Assembly: GCA_965279695.1 (NCBI GenBank)
Contig: OZ257259.1
Span: 3,724,531-3,788,530, forward strand
Direction: 5' to 3'
DNA: 64,000 nucleotides
From: Opitutaceae bacterium
GTDB taxonomy: Bacteria; Verrucomicrobiota; Verrucomicrobiia; Opitutales; Opitutaceae
Positions 11,285-58,640 of this stretch are shown here, piece by piece (the first letter of the stretch is position 1; each line of letters begins with the position of its first letter). Under the pieces are notes generated by a model. It saw only the letters and a program-made list of their open reading frames with translations. It was not told the origin of the DNA and did no database searches. The translations under genes and the position numbers were made by a program.

Positions 11285-11368
11285 GCGCCGGCGGTAGCGG
11301 CGGGCGTCCCTGCCCGCCGATGGTGCGCGCGGGCCCCCGCCTGAAACGGCGGGCAGAGACGCCCGCCG

Positions 11369-12262
11369 CTACGACCAGAGGCGCGCGGGATAGCGGCCGG
11401 CTTGGACGAGTGCGAGGAGCGCGGCTTGCACGCGGGGTTTGTCTTCCCGGTAGGTGACGCCGAACCAGGCGCTGTCGGTGGGGAGCACGCGCACAGTGGT
11501 CTCGCCGCGAGCGATCATCGTCGAGACAGAGGCAGGGAGGTAGAATTCCGACTTCGGCTCCGCGCCGCGCGCCGCGAAGAACTCGCGAAACTGCGTGTCG
11601 AGTCCGGCAAAGAGCGCGGGCGTGAAGCCCCAGCAGTTCATCGAGACGATGGTGTCGCCGGCAAATTTTTTCCCGGGGCCGACTTCGGCGGCGGTGATGC
11701 CGTGGGTCTCGACGATGCTCGCGAGGTGGCCGGTCGCATCGGTGGCGCACACGCCGCGCGAAACGGAGCCGTTTTCGGAGAGCGTGTTGGCCATACGGAA
11801 GCCGACGATCGCGAACTCATCCGCCGCTGAGGACTTCGCCGGCGCCGCGGTCAAAAACGCTGCGAGCCGGTTGAAGGAATCGGCTCCGTAAAAATCGTCG
11901 GCGTTGATGACGGCGAAGTTTTCTTTCACCGCGTCGCGTGCGCACCAGACAGCGTGGCCGGTGCCCCAGGGTTTCTCGCGGCCGGCGGGTGGCGTGTGGC
12001 CGAGCGGGAGCGCGTCGAGGGATTGAAACACGTAGTCGATGGCGATCTTGCCCGTGTAGCGCGCGCCGATCTGCGTGCGGAAGAGTTCCTCGAAATCGCG
12101 GCGGATCACGAAGACCACGCGGCCGAAACCGGCGCGCAGCGCATCGAAGACCGCGTAGTCGAGCACCGTCTCGCCGGAGGGACCGACAGGGTCGATTTGT
12201 TTCAGGCCGCCGTAGCGGGAGCCCATGCCGGCGGCGAGAACGAGGAGCGTAGGACGTGACAT
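11369..12262 (-). CDS. Sugar-phosphate nucleotidyltransferase (NTP_transferase family)
   Basis: The N-terminal motif LLVLAAGMGSRYGGLKQ is the G-x-G-S/T-R signature of NTP transferases. The start is moved to MSRPTLLVLAAG (ATG 12262). Confidence 0.65.
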   Translation of the reverse strand: MSRPTLLVLAAGMGSRYGGLKQIDPVGPSGETVLDYAVFDALRAGFGRVVFVIRRDFEELFRTQIGARYTGKIAIDYVFQSLDALPLGHTPPAGREKPWGTGHAVWCARDAVKENFAVINADDFYGADSFNRLAAFLTAAPAKSSAADEFAIVGFRMANTLSENGSVSRGVCATDATGHLASIVETHGITAAEVGPGKKFAGDTIVSMNCWGFTPALFAGLDTQFREFFAARGAEPKSEFYLPASVSTMIARGETTVRVLPTDSAWFGVTYREDKPRVQAALLALVQAGRYPARLWS

Positions 12263-27249: not shown

Positions 27250-28923
27250 ATGGACGCAACCGTTTCTTCACCCGGATTGTCCGCTTTCGGCGACCTTCCC
27301 CACCTCAAAGGTCACGACGTTCTGACGAATCCCCTCGTCAACAAAGGAACCGCCTTCACCGAAGCCGAGCGCGACGCTCTCGGCCTCCGCGGCCTCCTCC
27401 CGCCGCGCGTGTTTACCCTCGAAGAGCAACACCAGCGCACGCTCAACTCCGTCCGCGGCAAGCCCACCAATCTCGAGAAATACATCTACCTCACCACGCT
27501 CCAAAACCGCAACGAGACCCTCTTCTACCGTCTCGTCACCGAGCACATCGAGGAGATGGTGCCCCTTATCTACACGCCCACCGTCGGCGAAGCCTGCATC
27601 CAATACGGCTCCATCTACCGCCGCCCGCGCGGCATGTTCATCAGCCTCCGCGAGCGCGGCCACATCGCCGAAATGCTCCGCCACTGGCCCATCCAAGGCG
27701 TCCGCCTCATCGTCGTCACCGACGGCGAACGCATCCTCGGCCTCGGCGATCTCGGCGCCCTCGGCATGGGCATCCCCGTCGGCAAACTCTCCCTCTACAC
27801 CGCCTGCGCCGGCGTCCACCCCAGCTACTGCCTCCCCATCACCCTCGATGTCGGCACCGAAAACGCCTCGCTCCAGACCGGCTCCGCCTACATCGGCCTG
27901 AAACAAAAACGCGTCCGCGGCGCCGAATACGACGCCTTCATCGCCGAATTTGTCGCCGCCGTGAAAGAGGTCTTCCCGAAAGCCCTCATGCAGTGGGAAG
28001 ATTTCGGCAACACCAACGCCTTCCGCCTCCTCGAGGACTACCGCCGCGCCCTCCCCAGCTTCAACGACGACATCCAGGGCACCGCCGCCGTCGCCCTCGC
28101 CGGCGTCATCGGCGCCCTCCAACTCACCGGCGGCAAACTCGCCGAACAAAAACTCCTCTTCCTCGGCGCCGGTGAAGCCGGCACCGGCATCGCCGATCTC
28201 TACGTCGCCGCCGCCCGCGCCGCCGGCCTCACCGAAGCCGAAGCCCGCGCCCGCTGCTGGTTCGTCGATTCCAAAGGCCTCGTCGTGAAAAACCGCGGCG
28301 ACGTCCTCGCGCATCACAAACTCCCCTACGCGCACGAACACCCGTTCATCGCCACGCTGGAAGAAGCCGTCAACGCGCTGAAGCCCACCGCCCTCATCGG
28401 CGTCTCCGGCACCCCCGCCACCTTCACCCAGCCGATCGTCACCGCCATGGCGTCGTTCAACGCCCGCCCGATCATCTTCGCGCTCTCGAACCCCACCTCG
28501 AAAGCCGAGTGCACCGCCGCGCAAGCCTACACCTGGTCCGACGGCCGCGCCATCTTCGCCAGCGGCAGCCCCTTCGCCCCCTTCGAGTTCAAAGGCCGCG
28601 TCCACGTCTCCGGCCAGGGCAACAACATCTACATCTTCCCCGGCGTCGGCCTCGGCGCCCTCGTCAGCGAATCCCGCGAAGTCACCGACGAGATGTTCCT
28701 CGTCGCCGCGCAGACCCTCGCGAGCATGGTCGGCCCCGACGATCTCTCCGTGGGCCGCGTCTACCCCGCGCTCACGAAAGTCCGCGAAGTCTCGCTGCGC
28801 ATCGCGGTCGCCGTCGCCGAAGTCGCCTACCGCACCGGCCTCGCCGCCCTCCCGCGCCCCGCCGACCTCACGGAAGATATCCGCAGCCGGATGTTCCAAC
28901 CCGTCTACCGCGACTACACCTGA
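27250..28923 (+). CDS. NAD(P)-dependent malic enzyme
   Basis: The malic enzyme N-terminus is LNKGTAFTEAERDALGLRGLLPP. It has a Rossmann NAD-binding region, FLGAGEAGTGIA, and is 557 aa long. Confidence 0.85.
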   Translation: MDATVSSPGLSAFGDLPHLKGHDVLTNPLVNKGTAFTEAERDALGLRGLLPPRVFTLEEQHQRTLNSVRGKPTNLEKYIYLTTLQNRNETLFYRLVTEHIEEMVPLIYTPTVGEACIQYGSIYRRPRGMFISLRERGHIAEMLRHWPIQGVRLIVVTDGERILGLGDLGALGMGIPVGKLSLYTACAGVHPSYCLPITLDVGTENASLQTGSAYIGLKQKRVRGAEYDAFIAEFVAAVKEVFPKALMQWEDFGNTNAFRLLEDYRRALPSFNDDIQGTAAVALAGVIGALQLTGGKLAEQKLLFLGAGEAGTGIADLYVAAARAAGLTEAEARARCWFVDSKGLVVKNRGDVLAHHKLPYAHEHPFIATLEEAVNALKPTALIGVSGTPATFTQPIVTAMASFNARPIIFALSNPTSKAECTAAQAYTWSDGRAIFASGSPFAPFEFKGRVHVSGQGNNIYIFPGVGLGALVSESREVTDEMFLVAAQTLASMVGPDDLSVGRVYPALTKVREVSLRIAVAVAEVAYRTGLAALPRPADLTEDIRSRMFQPVYRDYT

Positions 28924-29385
28924 GCCAGGTGGGCGGGCGCGTCCCTGCGCCCGCATTCCCCGCGCCCCGGTCCCTCTCCCGCCGCCGCCCCCTTCTCCGA
29001 GGTGGAGCGCGTTGACCCTAACGCGCTTGCCCGCCGCCCCGTGCCACGGCTCTCCCGACCCGTGATCTCCTTTCCGCCCTCACTTTCCGCCGAAAAACTC
29101 TCGCAGCGCCCAGCCACCACGCCCGTTTCCCCGTTGCCACCCACCCCGCACGCCGATTTTCTCCCGCCAACCCATCGCCGCCTCCCTCTTCGGTCCACCC
29201 CGCCGCCCCCATTTCGCCACCCGACATCCAGTAAGGCATTTCGCGGTCTGCCGTTTGCCCCCGAAAAGCCTTACCCAACCTCCATCGCTTTTAGACCATG
29301 AATAACTTGCGCCCACTCGCTCTCCCGAATCCCGCCCCGCGAGTAAGGCAATCGGGTAAGGGCGAATAACACTGTTAGGCAAAAA

Positions 29386-33134: not shown

Positions 33135-33289
33135 CCACGCAGCGAACAACGTCACTCCACGCAGCGAACAACGTCAGGAACGCCGAACGACGTCAGGTCT
33201 TAACGCAGCGAACAACGTCAGTTAACGCAGCGAACAACGTCAGGTCTTGACTCTTGACTGATCGCCCGGCCCCCGCCCTGCTCCCCGCC
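33135..33289 (+). repeat. Iteron-like array: about five ~22-bp direct repeats (consensus a/cacgcagcgaacaacgtcag) + gtcttgactcttgactg + conserved block
   Basis: The units lie at about 33137-56, 33158-77, 33179-201, 33202-22 and 33223-45. Each contains or approximates the GACGTC palindrome. The array runs straight into the start codon at 33290. Confidence 0.7.
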
Positions 33290-34273
33290 ATGGCCAGACC
33301 TCTGCGCATCGAATTTGCCGGCGCTTGTTTCCACGTCATCAACCGCGGCAATTACCGCCGCACGCTCTTCACCGGCGACGGCGCGGCCGCCGCGTTTGAA
33401 CGCACCCTCGCCGAAGCCGCCACTCGCTTCCAGTGGCGCATCCACGCCTACGTGGTCATGAGCAACCACTTTCACCTCGCGCTCCAGCTCACCGAGCCGA
33501 ACCTCAGCGAGGGCATGAAGTGGCTCCAGGGCACCTGGATTCGCCGCTACAACGCCCTGCGCCGCCTCATCGGCCGTCCCTTCCAAGGCCGTTACAAAGC
33601 CCTGCTCGTCGAGCCCGGCCACGCGTTGGCCCAGGTCTGCCACTACATCCACCTCAACCCCGTGCGCGCCCGCCTCGTGCCGCCCGCCCAAGCCGCCCAC
33701 TACCCGTGGAGCAGCCTGCCGAAATTCATCGCCCGACCACGCCCCGCCTGGCTCGAAGCCGCGGAGTTTTTGGAGGCGGCCGGCGGTCTCGCGGACACTC
33801 CCGGCGGTTGGAAAAAATACCTGACCTACCTCGAGTTTCTCGCCGAAGACGAACCCTCGCGCAAAAGCCTCGTGGCCGAGCGTCTCAGCCGCGGCTGGTG
33901 TGTCGGCGGCGCGGAATTTCGGGCCTCGCTGAAACAGAAACTCGCCGCCCGCGGCGCCCTCGAAGAACGCTTTGCCGGCCTCGAACCCGCCACCGTGCGA
34001 GCCGAGCGCGAAACCCTCTGGGCCGAGCGCCTCATCGCCTTCGCCCGCGTCGCCAAGATCGACTTGGCCAAGCTGCCCGCGCCGAAATCCTCGCCCGAAA
34101 AAGTCCTGCTGGCCGCCGCCCTCAAGCAAACCTCCTCCGTGTCCAATGCTTGGCTGGCCACCCGGCTCGCCATGGGTGAGCCCGCCTCCGCGAGCCAATT
34201 CGTGCGCCGCCATCTCCTCACCAAGGAGGGTCGCACCGCGACGGCCGCACTGATCGCGAAAACCAAAATCTGA
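33290..34273 (+). CDS. IS200/IS605-family Y1 (HUH) tyrosine transposase homolog, RAYT-like, with ~170-aa C-terminal HTH-like extension
   Basis: The HUH motif is HAYVVMSNHFHLAL. The catalytic Tyr region is GRPFQGRYKALLV...CHYIHLNPVRARLV, which matches the transposase_17 signature ...YIxxNPVxxGLV. The C-terminal 170 aa are extra, with a DnaA-C-like helix-turn-helix flavour. Confidence 0.7.
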   Translation: MARPLRIEFAGACFHVINRGNYRRTLFTGDGAAAAFERTLAEAATRFQWRIHAYVVMSNHFHLALQLTEPNLSEGMKWLQGTWIRRYNALRRLIGRPFQGRYKALLVEPGHALAQVCHYIHLNPVRARLVPPAQAAHYPWSSLPKFIARPRPAWLEAAEFLEAAGGLADTPGGWKKYLTYLEFLAEDEPSRKSLVAERLSRGWCVGGAEFRASLKQKLAARGALEERFAGLEPATVRAERETLWAERLIAFARVAKIDLAKLPAPKSSPEKVLLAAALKQTSSVSNAWLATRLAMGEPASASQFVRRHLLTKEGRTATAALIAKTKI

Positions 34274-57413: not shown

Positions 57414-58640
57414 CTACGGAGCGGCGGCGACCGCCAGTTGCCCGCAGCCCGCAGCGATATCGATACCGCGTCGCTGGCGCACCGTGCTCGGAATCTGGAA
57501 TTCGGAGGAGAGGATGTGTTGGAAGGCCCGCGCGGCGGCGGTGTGCGTCGGTGCGCCGTCGTAGCCGGCCGTGGGGTTGAGCGGGATGAGGTTCACCTGC
57601 GCCGGCAGGCCGTGGAGCAAATTGCCGACCGCGCGCGCCGTCTCGACGGAATCGTTTTTCCCTTCGATGAGCGTCCACTCGTAGAAAATTTTCCGGCCAG
57701 TCGCTTCGCTGTAGGTGCGGCACGCAGCCAAGAGTTCATCGAGCGGCCACTTTTTCGCCGCGGGCACGAGCGCCGCGCGCTCCGCCTGCGTCGCGGCGTG
57801 CAGCGAGACGGCGAGGTGAAACGCGCGCTTCTCCTGCGCCAGCCGCAAAATCCCCGGCACCACGCCCACCGTGCTGACCGTGATGCGCTCGCCACCGAGG
57901 GCGAGTCCCGCCTCGTCGCGGAGGATATCAACCGCGTGCATCACCGCGTCGTAATTATGGAGCGGCTCGCCCATCCCCATCAGGACAATGTTGCGTAGTC
58001 GCTCGCCGGCTTTGGCCGCCTCGGCGCGCGCGCGCGCTTGTTCGGCCGATGACGTGTAACCCAATAGGTTACACGTTGGCGGATTTGCCGAGGGCGCGGT
58101 GGCTTCGGGCGCATCCGGGGACGTGTAACCTATTGGGTTACACGTGGTGGGTTCGGACGGGCGAAGGACGGGGGTGCGGGAGTCGCGCAGCGCGCGGGCG
58201 ACGTGCACGGCCTGCGCGACGATTTCGCCTGGCGTGAGGTGCCGCGTGTAGCCCATTTGGCCGGTCGCGCAAAACACACAGCCCATCGCACAGCCCACCT
58301 GCGAACTCACGCACGCGGTGACGCGGCCTTTGTAGCGCATGAGCACGGTCTCGATGCGTTCGCCGTCGGCGAGACGAAGGAGATATTTGCGCGTGAAGCC
58401 GTCGGTGGAATCGGTCTCGAGCGCGGTCGGCAGGACGCCGAGGGAGGTTTCCGCGAGGAGGCGGGTGCGAACCTTCGGCGGGAGGTCCGGCATCGCCGCT
58501 TCGGAAAACGACTCGGCGAGCCCGAGGTAGAGGTAGTTCCACAACGTCGCCGCGTGCACCGGCGACAATTCCCACGAAACCAACAGCGCGCGCAGTTGCT
58601 CGCGGGTGAGGTCGTAGAGATTGAGCGGCGCGGCGGACAT
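57414..58640 (-). CDS. rlmN: 23S rRNA (adenine2503-C2)-methyltransferase RlmN (radical SAM), carrying an in-frame ~50-aa insertion
   Basis: The radical-SAM cluster motif is CAMGCVFCATG. The conserved motifs are MGMGEPLHN and GVVPGI. The insertion lies between EIVAQAVHVARAL and RNIVLMGMGEP and encodes TCNPIGYTS...TCNLLGYTS. Confidence 0.85.
   Translation of the reverse strand: MSAAPLNLYDLTREQLRALLVSWELSPVHAATLWNYLYLGLAESFSEAAMPDLPPKVRTRLLAETSLGVLPTALETDSTDGFTRKYLLRLADGERIETVLMRYKGRVTACVSSQVGCAMGCVFCATGQMGYTRHLTPGEIVAQAVHVARALRDSRTPVLRPSEPTTCNPIGYTSPDAPEATAPSANPPTCNLLGYTSSAEQARARAEAAKAGERLRNIVLMGMGEPLHNYDAVMHAVDILRDEAGLALGGERITVSTVGVVPGILRLAQEKRAFHLAVSLHAATQAERAALVPAAKKWPLDELLAACRTYSEATGRKIFYEWTLIEGKNDSVETARAVGNLLHGLPAQVNLIPLNPTAGYDGAPTHTAAARAFQHILSSEFQIPSTVRQRRGIDIAAGCGQLAVAAAP
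58053..58145. repeat. Two inverted copies of a 23-bp palindromic hairpin (cgtgtaacc-caata-ggttacacg at 58053-58075; exact reverse complement at 58122-58144) inside rlmN coding sequence
   Basis: I read these directly from the sequence. Each copy has a 9-bp perfect stem. The second copy equals the reverse complement of the first, so the loop is flipped. Both are in frame, each encoding TCN(P/L)(I/L)GYTS. Confidence 0.85.

Follow-up and report, generated by a model that had tools for sequence, protein, structure and literature searches.

The rlmN gene of an Opitutaceae bacterium, contained in the 64,000-nucleotide window analysed here (contig OZ257259.1 of assembly GCA_965279695.1), carries two short palindromic hairpins within its coding sequence. 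The segment at 58052-58145 is read here as an inverted pair of stem-loops resembling repetitive extragenic palindromes (REPs), members of a family dispersed in Opitutaceae/Verrucomicrobia and carried as a tolerated passenger in a disordered loop of RlmN. We put the probability of this reading at about 80%. Dispersal of the family, in-frame residence of its members in unrelated genes, and variation in presence, absence and copy number at the RlmN loop were all observed. Positions below are those of the window, unless they are given with one of the fetched loci (L numbers); orthologous RlmN proteins are cited by P numbers.

Each hairpin is 25 nt long with a perfect 10-bp stem (arms 100% complementary, as called by a repeat finder), and the two units are exact reverse complements of each other. 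Read on the forward strand, ACGTGTAACC-CAATA-GGTTACACGT occupies 58052-58076 and ACGTGTAACC-TATTG-GGTTACACGT occupies 58121-58145, with a start-to-start distance of 69 nt, or 23 codons. An earlier note on this DNA had described two 23-nt cores, exact reverse complements lying 46 nt apart; these cores are present at 58053-58075 and 58122-58144, and the stems really extend to 10 bp. Chance would be expected to give 0.03 copies of the pattern CGTGTAACC-N5-GGTTACACG, at up to 3 mismatches, in the window, and two or more copies arose in 0 of 100 shuffles. The octamer GTGTAACC is confined to the four hairpin arms, and a search of the 64 kb with up to 3 mismatches, and also with relaxed stems, returned no hairpin copy beyond the rlmN pair.

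The whole 94-nt segment forms an imperfect palindrome with 38-nt arms (87% complementary by the repeat finder), and its RNA is predicted to fold into a single long hairpin (-62 kcal/mol, z=-8.3), far more stable than shuffled controls. As DNA, the pair gives -36 to -39 kcal/mol (z about -8.7), unit 1 alone -10.2 kcal/mol (z=-6.3) and unit 2 alone -10.6 kcal/mol (z=-7.1). None of the other hairpin pairs listed has this spacer sequence. The closest allele, which differs from the window at 4 positions of the spacer and at 0 of the hairpins, does not keep the spacer's weak self-complementarity. There is no target-site duplication at the pair, the flanks reading ...CCGATG / element / GGTGGG.... A search of Rfam gave no family at or above its gathering score, the sub-threshold matches being generic miRNA-precursor hairpins that reached 22-38 bits where the gathering scores are 97-268. 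The pair recurs in independent assemblies, including an NCBI metagenome-assembled genome (MAG), a Logan assembly and three more alleles, and is therefore not an assembly artefact.

The product of the host gene matches the RlmN structures 6FZ6 (E=4e-83) and E. coli 3RF9 (E=1.8e-52) in the PDB, and its orthologues are named RlmN by their sources. The pair had been described as in frame, and the intact 408-aa open reading frame (ORF) indeed reads ...PTTCNPIGYTS...PPTCNLLGYTS... across the hairpins. Query residues of about 156-209 are unmatched in both PDB alignments, which bear out the claim of a protein about 50 aa longer than E. coli RlmN between the cluster motif and MGMGEP: the insert falls between E. 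coli residues 163 and 164, past the helix behind the CX3CX2C cluster motif and ahead of the strand leading into MGMGEP, in a loop that exceeds its counterpart in solved RlmN structures by about 50 aa. The catalytic cysteines C110, C117, C121, C124 and C399 are invariant in an alignment of 25 orthologues. The window's gene differs from the closest allele at 70 of 1227 nt, and 54 of the 70 differences lie at third codon positions, showing rlmN to be under purifying selection. Judged from its sequence, the enzyme is intact despite the insert.

An AlphaFold model built on the orthologue alignment (of moderate quality, with a mean predicted local distance difference test score, pLDDT, of 67) has a helix at residues 137-153 before the insert, coil with pLDDT below 50 at residues 156-197, a clade-specific helix at 198-210 (AEQARARAEAAKAG) after the insert, and a strand at 215-221. 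Within the loop, the hairpins encode part of the disordered N-terminal portion, the C-terminal portion being the short clade-specific helix. The insert is, in this model, a disordered excursion of the surface loop that joins helix alpha1 to strand beta2 in the radical-SAM core, in keeping with the surface position proposed for it.

Table 1. Coordinates of the rlmN hairpin pair, its host gene and the transposase-family gene of the window
Feature	Position	Strand	Details
rlmN, 23S rRNA/tRNA adenine-C2 methyltransferase (radical SAM)	57414..58640	-	intact 408-aa ORF
Lineage-specific RlmN loop (aa about 152-205)	58026..58187	-	between helix alpha1 and strand beta2
Hairpin unit 1 (gene order)	58121..58145	-	sense strand ACGTGTAACC-CAATA-GGTTACACGT; encodes T-C-N-P-I-G-Y-T (aa 166-173)
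44-nt spacer between hairpin units	58077..58120	-	encodes S-P-D-A-P-E-A-T-A-P-S-A-N-P-P
Hairpin unit 2 (gene order)	58052..58076	-	sense strand ACGTGTAACC-TATTG-GGTTACACGT; encodes T-C-N-L-L-G-Y-T (aa 189-196)
IS200-like Y1 (HUH) transposase-family gene	33290..34270	+	Pfam PF01797 Y1_Tnp, E=7e-11, 42.7 bits vs cutoff 23

The hairpin is one member of a dispersed family. When 185,579 species-representative genomes were scanned, the pattern CGTGTAACC-N5-GGTTACACG came up at 68 loci, 47 of which, with 74 hairpin copies, belong to Verrucomicrobia/Opitutaceae MAGs. The loop is CAATA/TATTG in 53 of the 73 loops of the Verrucomicrobia copies, and the family consensus is CGTGTAACC-YAWTR-GGTTACACG, a stem-loop of 23-25 nt in total with a 9-10-bp stem and a 5-nt loop. 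The 47 loci come from two MAGs that NCBI labels Opitutus sp. GAS368, from Opitutaceae D1_MAG_00083, from OH_PBB_241, from a MAG with 66-71% GC that bears the label Akkermansia, and from others. The closest MAG, whose RlmN is 97% identical, has 14 exact hairpin copies on 11 contigs, rlmN included, and other MAGs have 6-12 hairpin loci each. The loops of the matches in Bacteroidota, Firmicutes and Betaproteobacteria are diverse and unrelated, and T runs follow several of these other-phylum matches, as in terminators. A MAG labelled 'uncultured Akkermansia sp.' (contigs CAZOGV01...) carries the Opitutaceae hairpin family at nine loci (L011, L015, L018, L024, L035, L040, L044, L061 and L075; 63-71% GC in these loci) and appears to be taxonomically mislabelled.

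A sister palindrome, TTGTCACGTAWTACGTGACAA, is more widespread than the window's hairpin, with some copies in arrays. The sister palindrome TGTCACGTAWTACGTGACA of the metagenome scan was found at at least 120 loci (at least 169 copies), mostly intergenic, and 3 of the at least 120 metagenome loci listed are rlmN loci. In neither family did position-wise information content, computed for 71 and 164 oriented copies, show a nucleotide conserved outside the palindrome. Pairs of hairpins are spaced at 46, 57, 69 or 99 nt, have unrelated spacers and occur in both direct and inverted orientation; since spacing, spacer and orientation all vary by locus, the doublet is not a conserved replicating unit. 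One array (L024, 2392-3011) comprises ten units at 66-68-nt spacing in a 200-bp higher-order repeat whose loops cycle through CATTA, CAATA and CATTG. In its Verrucomicrobia MAG, the array separates two divergent genes, in the manner of a cluster of bacterial interspersed mosaic elements (BIMEs), and further intergenic arrays are present in L161, L163 and L165.

The stems of intergenic copies are often lengthened by complementary flanks specific to the locus or genome, as in D1_MAG_00083, where an extended stem CAGC...GCTG is followed by a T run. Several MAGs have an extended-stem subfamily, GGCCAT-hairpin-ATGGCC, that overlaps a start codon (L036 at 957, L069 at 943; also L023, L030 and L042). 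The ATG of the right arm in L036 and L069 appears to start the downstream gene, and the downstream genes of these two loci are orthologous. In the mRNA, such an extended-stem hairpin could occlude the start codon.

A copy was called intragenic if it was spanned by an ORF of 150 aa or more, with 40 codons or more between the copy and the 5' end of this ORF, and if the third-position GC content (GC3) of the ORF was at least 10 points above the GC content of the locus; a few copies called in this way may lie upstream of the true start codon. By this heuristic, 15 of the 74 copies of the window's family are intragenic (about 80% being outside long ORFs), as are 19 of the at least 169 copies listed for the sister family, or about 11%. 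Hosts confirmed with Pfam are UvrA, TatD, a DUF5107/TPR protein, the bifunctional NAD(P)HX epimerase/dehydratase Nnr (with the hairpin between its two domains), a 3-beta-HSD/epimerase (with two hairpin copies), a Wzy_C ligase (with two copies directly after the domain) and a Bac_transf sugar transferase (with an interdomain hairpin). At the uvrA locus (L037, 2-3193), two units, one encoding TCNPIGYT and the other a degenerate CNPIGYS, lie in an uninterrupted frame between the end of a UvrA-like C-terminal ABC-ATPase and the start of a full UvrA.

The window's family is read as CN[PL][ILMT]GYT in each of its 15 intragenic copies. A second frame through the palindrome contains TAA in both orientations, and the third contains TAG in the CAATA orientation. 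With a stop in at least one orientation in two of the three frames, the intragenic copies that survive read in the open one, giving T-C-N-[PL]-[IL]-G-Y-T. The RVTYWVTR frame, open in one orientation, is yet unused among the 15 copies, and the sister family uses both of its frames, giving CHV[IL]RD and VTYYVT. The DNA palindrome yields the peptide T-C-N-[PL]-[IL]-G-Y-T as a by-product; the peptide is not a motif under selection.

The loop of RlmN was compared among 112 orthologues with recognisable loop anchors, where its length ranges from 10 to 81 aa. Motifs of the form C[HN]x[ILMV][RGSN][DYN] occur in the loop of 37 of these proteins and elsewhere in the protein in none, and a bare 10-aa loop of the LRTAREPHRL type is present in 25. 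In the alignment of close orthologues, the loop is hypervariable and contains the repeated motifs CHVIRD, CHVLRD, CNVLRY and CNLIGYT. Each loop motif for which DNA was fetched corresponds to a 19-25-nt DNA palindrome, present in 1-4 copies. The window's hairpin variant is carried by the 97%-identical rlmN of L001. The palindrome TTGTCACGTA(A/T)TACGTGACAA occurs once in L005, twice in L006 and four times in L009 (with a 45-nt period), and also in L007, whose second copy is TGTCACTTAATAAGTGACA, and in L008; the palindrome of L003 is TTGTAACGTA(A/T)TACGT(T/G)ACAA. In the DNA alignment, the window's downstream palindrome (unit 2) aligns with those of L003, L005 and L006.

The sister palindromes at the loop (TTGTCACGTAWTACGTGACAA, TTGTAACGTAWTACGTTACAA and TGTCACTTAWTAAGTGACA, with TGTCACC...GGTGACA as an inferred form) differ by changes on both stem arms, and the residues of the motif co-vary as pairing demands, the partners being H-D, N-Y, V-R, L(TTA)-S and L/P(CTA/CCA)-G. 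Decayed copies are found in L008 (first copy), P0073 (CRAMRDK), P0089 and P0124 (CNILGYT), the last having point changes inside the hairpin units. Palindrome copy number at the loop ranges from 0 to 4, and the close relatives P0003 (rlmN of L004) and P0004, at 87% identity, have none. The loop of one further orthologue (P0044; L198, about 1150-1200) holds a GTAG-tagged hairpin, GTAG-CCGGC-GTCGCTGA...TCAGCGAC, which encodes VAGVAEAG. The 'LSTLSxQLST' loop of L199 was also considered as a hairpin and was rejected as a non-palindromic, low-complexity direct repeat.

Within the orthologue loci (up to 21 kb each), palindromes were found only in rlmN. A palindrome restricted to rlmN, as these loci had suggested, was overturned by the genome and metagenome scans. 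Given its variable occupancy (0-4 copies, bare loops, and a GTAG-tagged REP in one orthologue), the RlmN loop is a permissive site with recurrent occupancy and not a regulatory structure peculiar to rlmN. The proposal of the earlier note that a REP-like hairpin pair is tolerated in a surface loop is supported by the dispersal of the hairpin, the variability of the loop, the fold and the predicted disorder. The checks it had named also came out in favour: unrelated Opitutaceae/Verrucomicrobia loci carry the hairpin in large numbers, and the extra residues are variable between lineages, with many 10-aa loops and close relatives free of palindromes.

In the mechanism we propose, which is REP-like, an HUH/Y1-type enzyme working in trans, or something comparable, would act on the elements as single-stranded DNA hairpins and spread them. 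A resident hairpin, or the tolerance of the loop, would then favour renewed insertion, tandem duplication (as in the 45-nt period), decay and deletion, and the RlmN insert would have no rlmN-specific function.

Several observations weigh against the passenger reading. The window's genome, an 8.86-Mb contig, is outside the scanned collection, and the window itself has only the two rlmN copies. The Y1_Tnp gene of the window lies 24 kb from rlmN and is without flanking hairpin copies, and no RAYT-like gene (encoding a REP-associated tyrosine transposase) was found within 1.5 kb of hairpins in about 1.2 Mb of fetched, fragmentary loci. The hairpin element has no conserved flanking tag or target-site duplication, so that its transposition is presumed. 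The 'empty' rlmN of L004 (P0003) has CACCGGTG / GGTGCC where relatives have the right arm, which may be the remnant of a deletion and not a never-occupied site. Occupancy of one-third of the orthologues together with co-varying stems could mean a single ancient insertion kept by structural selection. The neighbour-joining tree of core RlmN sequences (about 70-75% identity) is poorly resolved and therefore gives no choice between independent insertions and one ancient insertion with turnover, duplication and loss.

The search for Y1/RAYT genes compared three Y1-like proteins from the data with all loci and used Pfam in addition; a tblastn search with a RAYT sequence served as a lead only. Y1-like genes are also present in L008, L068, L139 and L140, none of them within 1.5 kb of a hairpin, and the match at L068:118-582 is below Pfam significance. 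The link to a RAYT-like gene, which the earlier note had put forward for checking, was not borne out in the window: the Y1_Tnp gene exists but has no hairpin nearby.

The flanks of this gene carry repeats other than the rlmN hairpin. Directly upstream, at 33140-33250, there are five direct copies of about ACGCAGCGAACAACGTCAG, which look like iterons or binding sites, and the gene product has a roughly 200-aa C-terminal extension past the transposase domain. Elsewhere in the window, a canonical GTAG-tagged REP dimer is located in the intergenic region at 11294-11372, with GTAG-CGGCGGGC-GTCCCT-GCCCGCCG as its first unit and, 50 nt later, the inverted partner CGGCGGGC-AGAGAC-GCCCGCCG-CTAC; its family differs from that of the rlmN hairpin. 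Two GTGG-tagged hairpins, GTGG-GCGGGCGC-GTCCCT-GCGCCCGC at 28927-28955 and GTGG-AGCGCGTT-GACCCT-AACGCGCT at 29001-29027, lie directly past the stop codon of a 557-aa ORF (27250-28923). The GTGG tag at 28927-29027 is the variant given for GTAG-20 elements of Opitutus terrae (Di Nocera, De Gregorio and Rocco 2013, BMC Genomics 14:522, PMC3733652). These GTAG- and GTGG-tagged hairpins are more plausible partners of a RAYT than the rlmN hairpin.

A stronger version of recurrent occupancy, which we consider unlikely, is that the RlmN alpha1-beta2 loop is a specific landing site conserved throughout the family, with the resident hairpin repeatedly replaced by, or converted to, the variant currently spreading. 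If this were true, the loop would offer a natural series of full, empty and replaced orthologous alleles for studying the movement of an untagged REP-like hairpin. It is likewise conceivable, though unlikely, that the hairpin has been co-opted to modulate rlmN expression.

It is improbable that the palindromes are instead an ancient, selected mRNA or DNA structure specific to rlmN, acting in translation, mRNA stability or co-translational folding, with the dispersed copies secondary or unrelated. In 37 of 112 orthologues the palindromes share one position, immediately upstream of strand beta2, their pairing is kept across lineages (at codon level CHV.RD, CNV.RY, CN[PL].GY, CH[PL].GD and CHL.SD; TGTCACTTAATAAGTGACA in L007), the RNA fold is very stable, and two alleles show 0 differences in 50 hairpin nt as against 70 in 1227 gene-wide, where P is only 0.05 and not decisive. 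However, dozens of unrelated loci, both between and within genes, have identical hairpins, including the loop, the rlmN site has anything from 0 to 4 copies and is bare in P0003, P0004 and the many 10-aa loops, copies decay (first copy of L008, P0124, P0073), a different repeat type, the GTAG-tagged REP of L198, occupies the same loop, and no Rfam family matches above threshold. The earlier suggestion of a regulatory mRNA structure particular to rlmN is undermined by the identical hairpins in many unrelated genes and intergenic regions.

An intragenic inverton, in which the inverted repeats let the 44-nt spacer flip and the loop peptide alternate between SPDAPEATAPSANPP and LADLPRARWLRAHPG, is highly improbable. 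Invertons within genes have reportedly been described in a preprint, the 25-nt inverted repeats here are perfect, and both orientations are in frame owing to the 69-nt spacing and the frame symmetry of the palindrome, a plus-strand 117-aa ORF reading both hairpins in the TCN..GYT frame. Against this, the spacer has the same orientation in all five alleles of the 90% cluster, orthologues have single copies or direct-orientation pairs (with the same central base), and the repeats are generic dispersed hairpins. A spacer of 44 nt is also very short for recombinase-mediated inversion. The ORFs around rlmN (56.5-60 kb) encode, apart from RlmN, a product matching the PHP-domain protein found next to rlmN at related loci, a protein resembling histidine kinases, and a 504-aa product that bears no annotation.

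Selection on the encoded peptide, with the extra Cys/His of C-N-x-x-G-Y-T or C-H-V-I-R-D pairs forming a metal-binding or redox site, has very little to recommend it: every unit has a cysteine, CH...CH pairs look like a Cys2His2 set and the host enzyme itself has catalytic cysteines, but the same peptide accompanies the DNA hairpin into unrelated UvrA, TatD, Nnr and sugar transferase proteins, there may be anything from 0 to 4 units, Asn stands in place of His in the window's variant, the region is predicted to be disordered, and the co-varying residues are those dictated by base pairing of the palindrome.

On the passenger reading, the odd 50-aa insertion in RlmN is explained as a repeat, which guards against its being taken for a functional domain or a regulatory RNA. 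Two related and apparently undescribed hairpin families of Opitutaceae are delineated, CGTGTAACC-YAWTR-GGTTACACG and TTGTCACGTAWTACGTGACAA, and their peptide footprints (CN[PL][IL]GYT, CHV[IL]RD and VTYYVT) can be masked by annotators. A single loop repeatedly occupied by co-varying palindromes provides a comparative system for the spread, turnover and tolerance of untagged palindromes.

In the broad sense the element is a REP, being a short stem-loop palindrome with many dispersed copies that are mainly intergenic and form dimers or clusters. It also resembles the Rickettsia palindromic elements (RPEs), which are said, from work by Ogata and co-workers in 2000, to be palindromes inserted in frame in many genes, typically at surface-exposed positions, with the ORF intact. 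As with RPEs, insertion here is intragenic and in frame, the host ORF stays intact, the inserted residues are absent from homologues, and no dedicated transposase has been identified. The RPEs differ in sequence and phylum, and RPE-1 measures 100-150 bp. Two superfamilies of prokaryotic REPs, GTAG and CGTC, have been distinguished (Di Nocera, De Gregorio and Rocco 2013, PMC3733652), and RPE-4 and RPE-6 correspond to CGTC-4 and CGTC-1 (PMC3733652); dRS3 is another of the CGTC-tagged repeats. CGTC families have a one-sided CGTC or TGTC tag, A-T pairs in the first two positions of the stem and a short unpaired tail like CCA, whereas the element here is a symmetric 21-25-bp palindrome with neither tag nor tail; the stem has CGTG...CACG or TTGTC...GACAA on both sides and no conserved tail, which places it outside the CGTC class.

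REPIN doublets and BIMEs (Bertels and Rainey 2011; E. coli) likewise consist of inverted units that can fold into one long hairpin, and the tandem intergenic arrays of units found here (L024, L161, L163 and L165) are BIME-like. REPINs have a conserved doublet unit, whereas spacing, spacer and orientation of the pairs here vary by locus, and assignment as a REPIN was rejected on these grounds. The name MITE (a miniature transposable element with inverted repeats), offered in the earlier note, was also rejected: there is no target-site duplication, the internal 44 nt are not common to other pairs, and there is no conserved composite unit.

The nearest parallels are in the same bacterial family as the window's element. 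Intragenic REPs are most numerous in O. terrae, where both uvrA genes are interrupted by REP singles or dimers, and different REPs have been found at about the same recB site in two Xanthomonas species (PMC3733652). Like the intragenic REPs of O. terrae (GTAG-17 to GTAG-20), the hairpins here are dispersed short stem-loops that form dimers or clusters and sit in frame, as singles or dimers, in housekeeping genes, and uvrA is a host in O. terrae as well as in L037 here. The loop peptide VAGVAEAG of L198 resembles VAGVADPG, the peptide of O. terrae GTAG-17. The O. terrae peptides (VAGVADPG, VGPALAAG and GTGVPPV) differ in sequence from CNPIGYT and CHVIRD, and unlike the O. terrae GTAG families, the element here has no GTAG or GTGG tag, no such tag being conserved across the 71 and 164 oriented copies. 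The supplementary files of PMC3733652, in which radical SAM, Cfr and methyltransferase were looked for, yielded no O. terrae ORF resembling RlmN, and the exact hairpin sequences were not found in the searchable literature. The view that such events are rarely annotated holds in part, but intragenic O. terrae REPs were already catalogued in 2013 (PMC3733652). The hairpin behaves like GTAG REPs, CGTC repeats, REPINs and MITEs, yet it is a member of none of them. The phenomenon is known in this bacterial family, but neither these particular hairpin families nor the rlmN site seem to have been described before.

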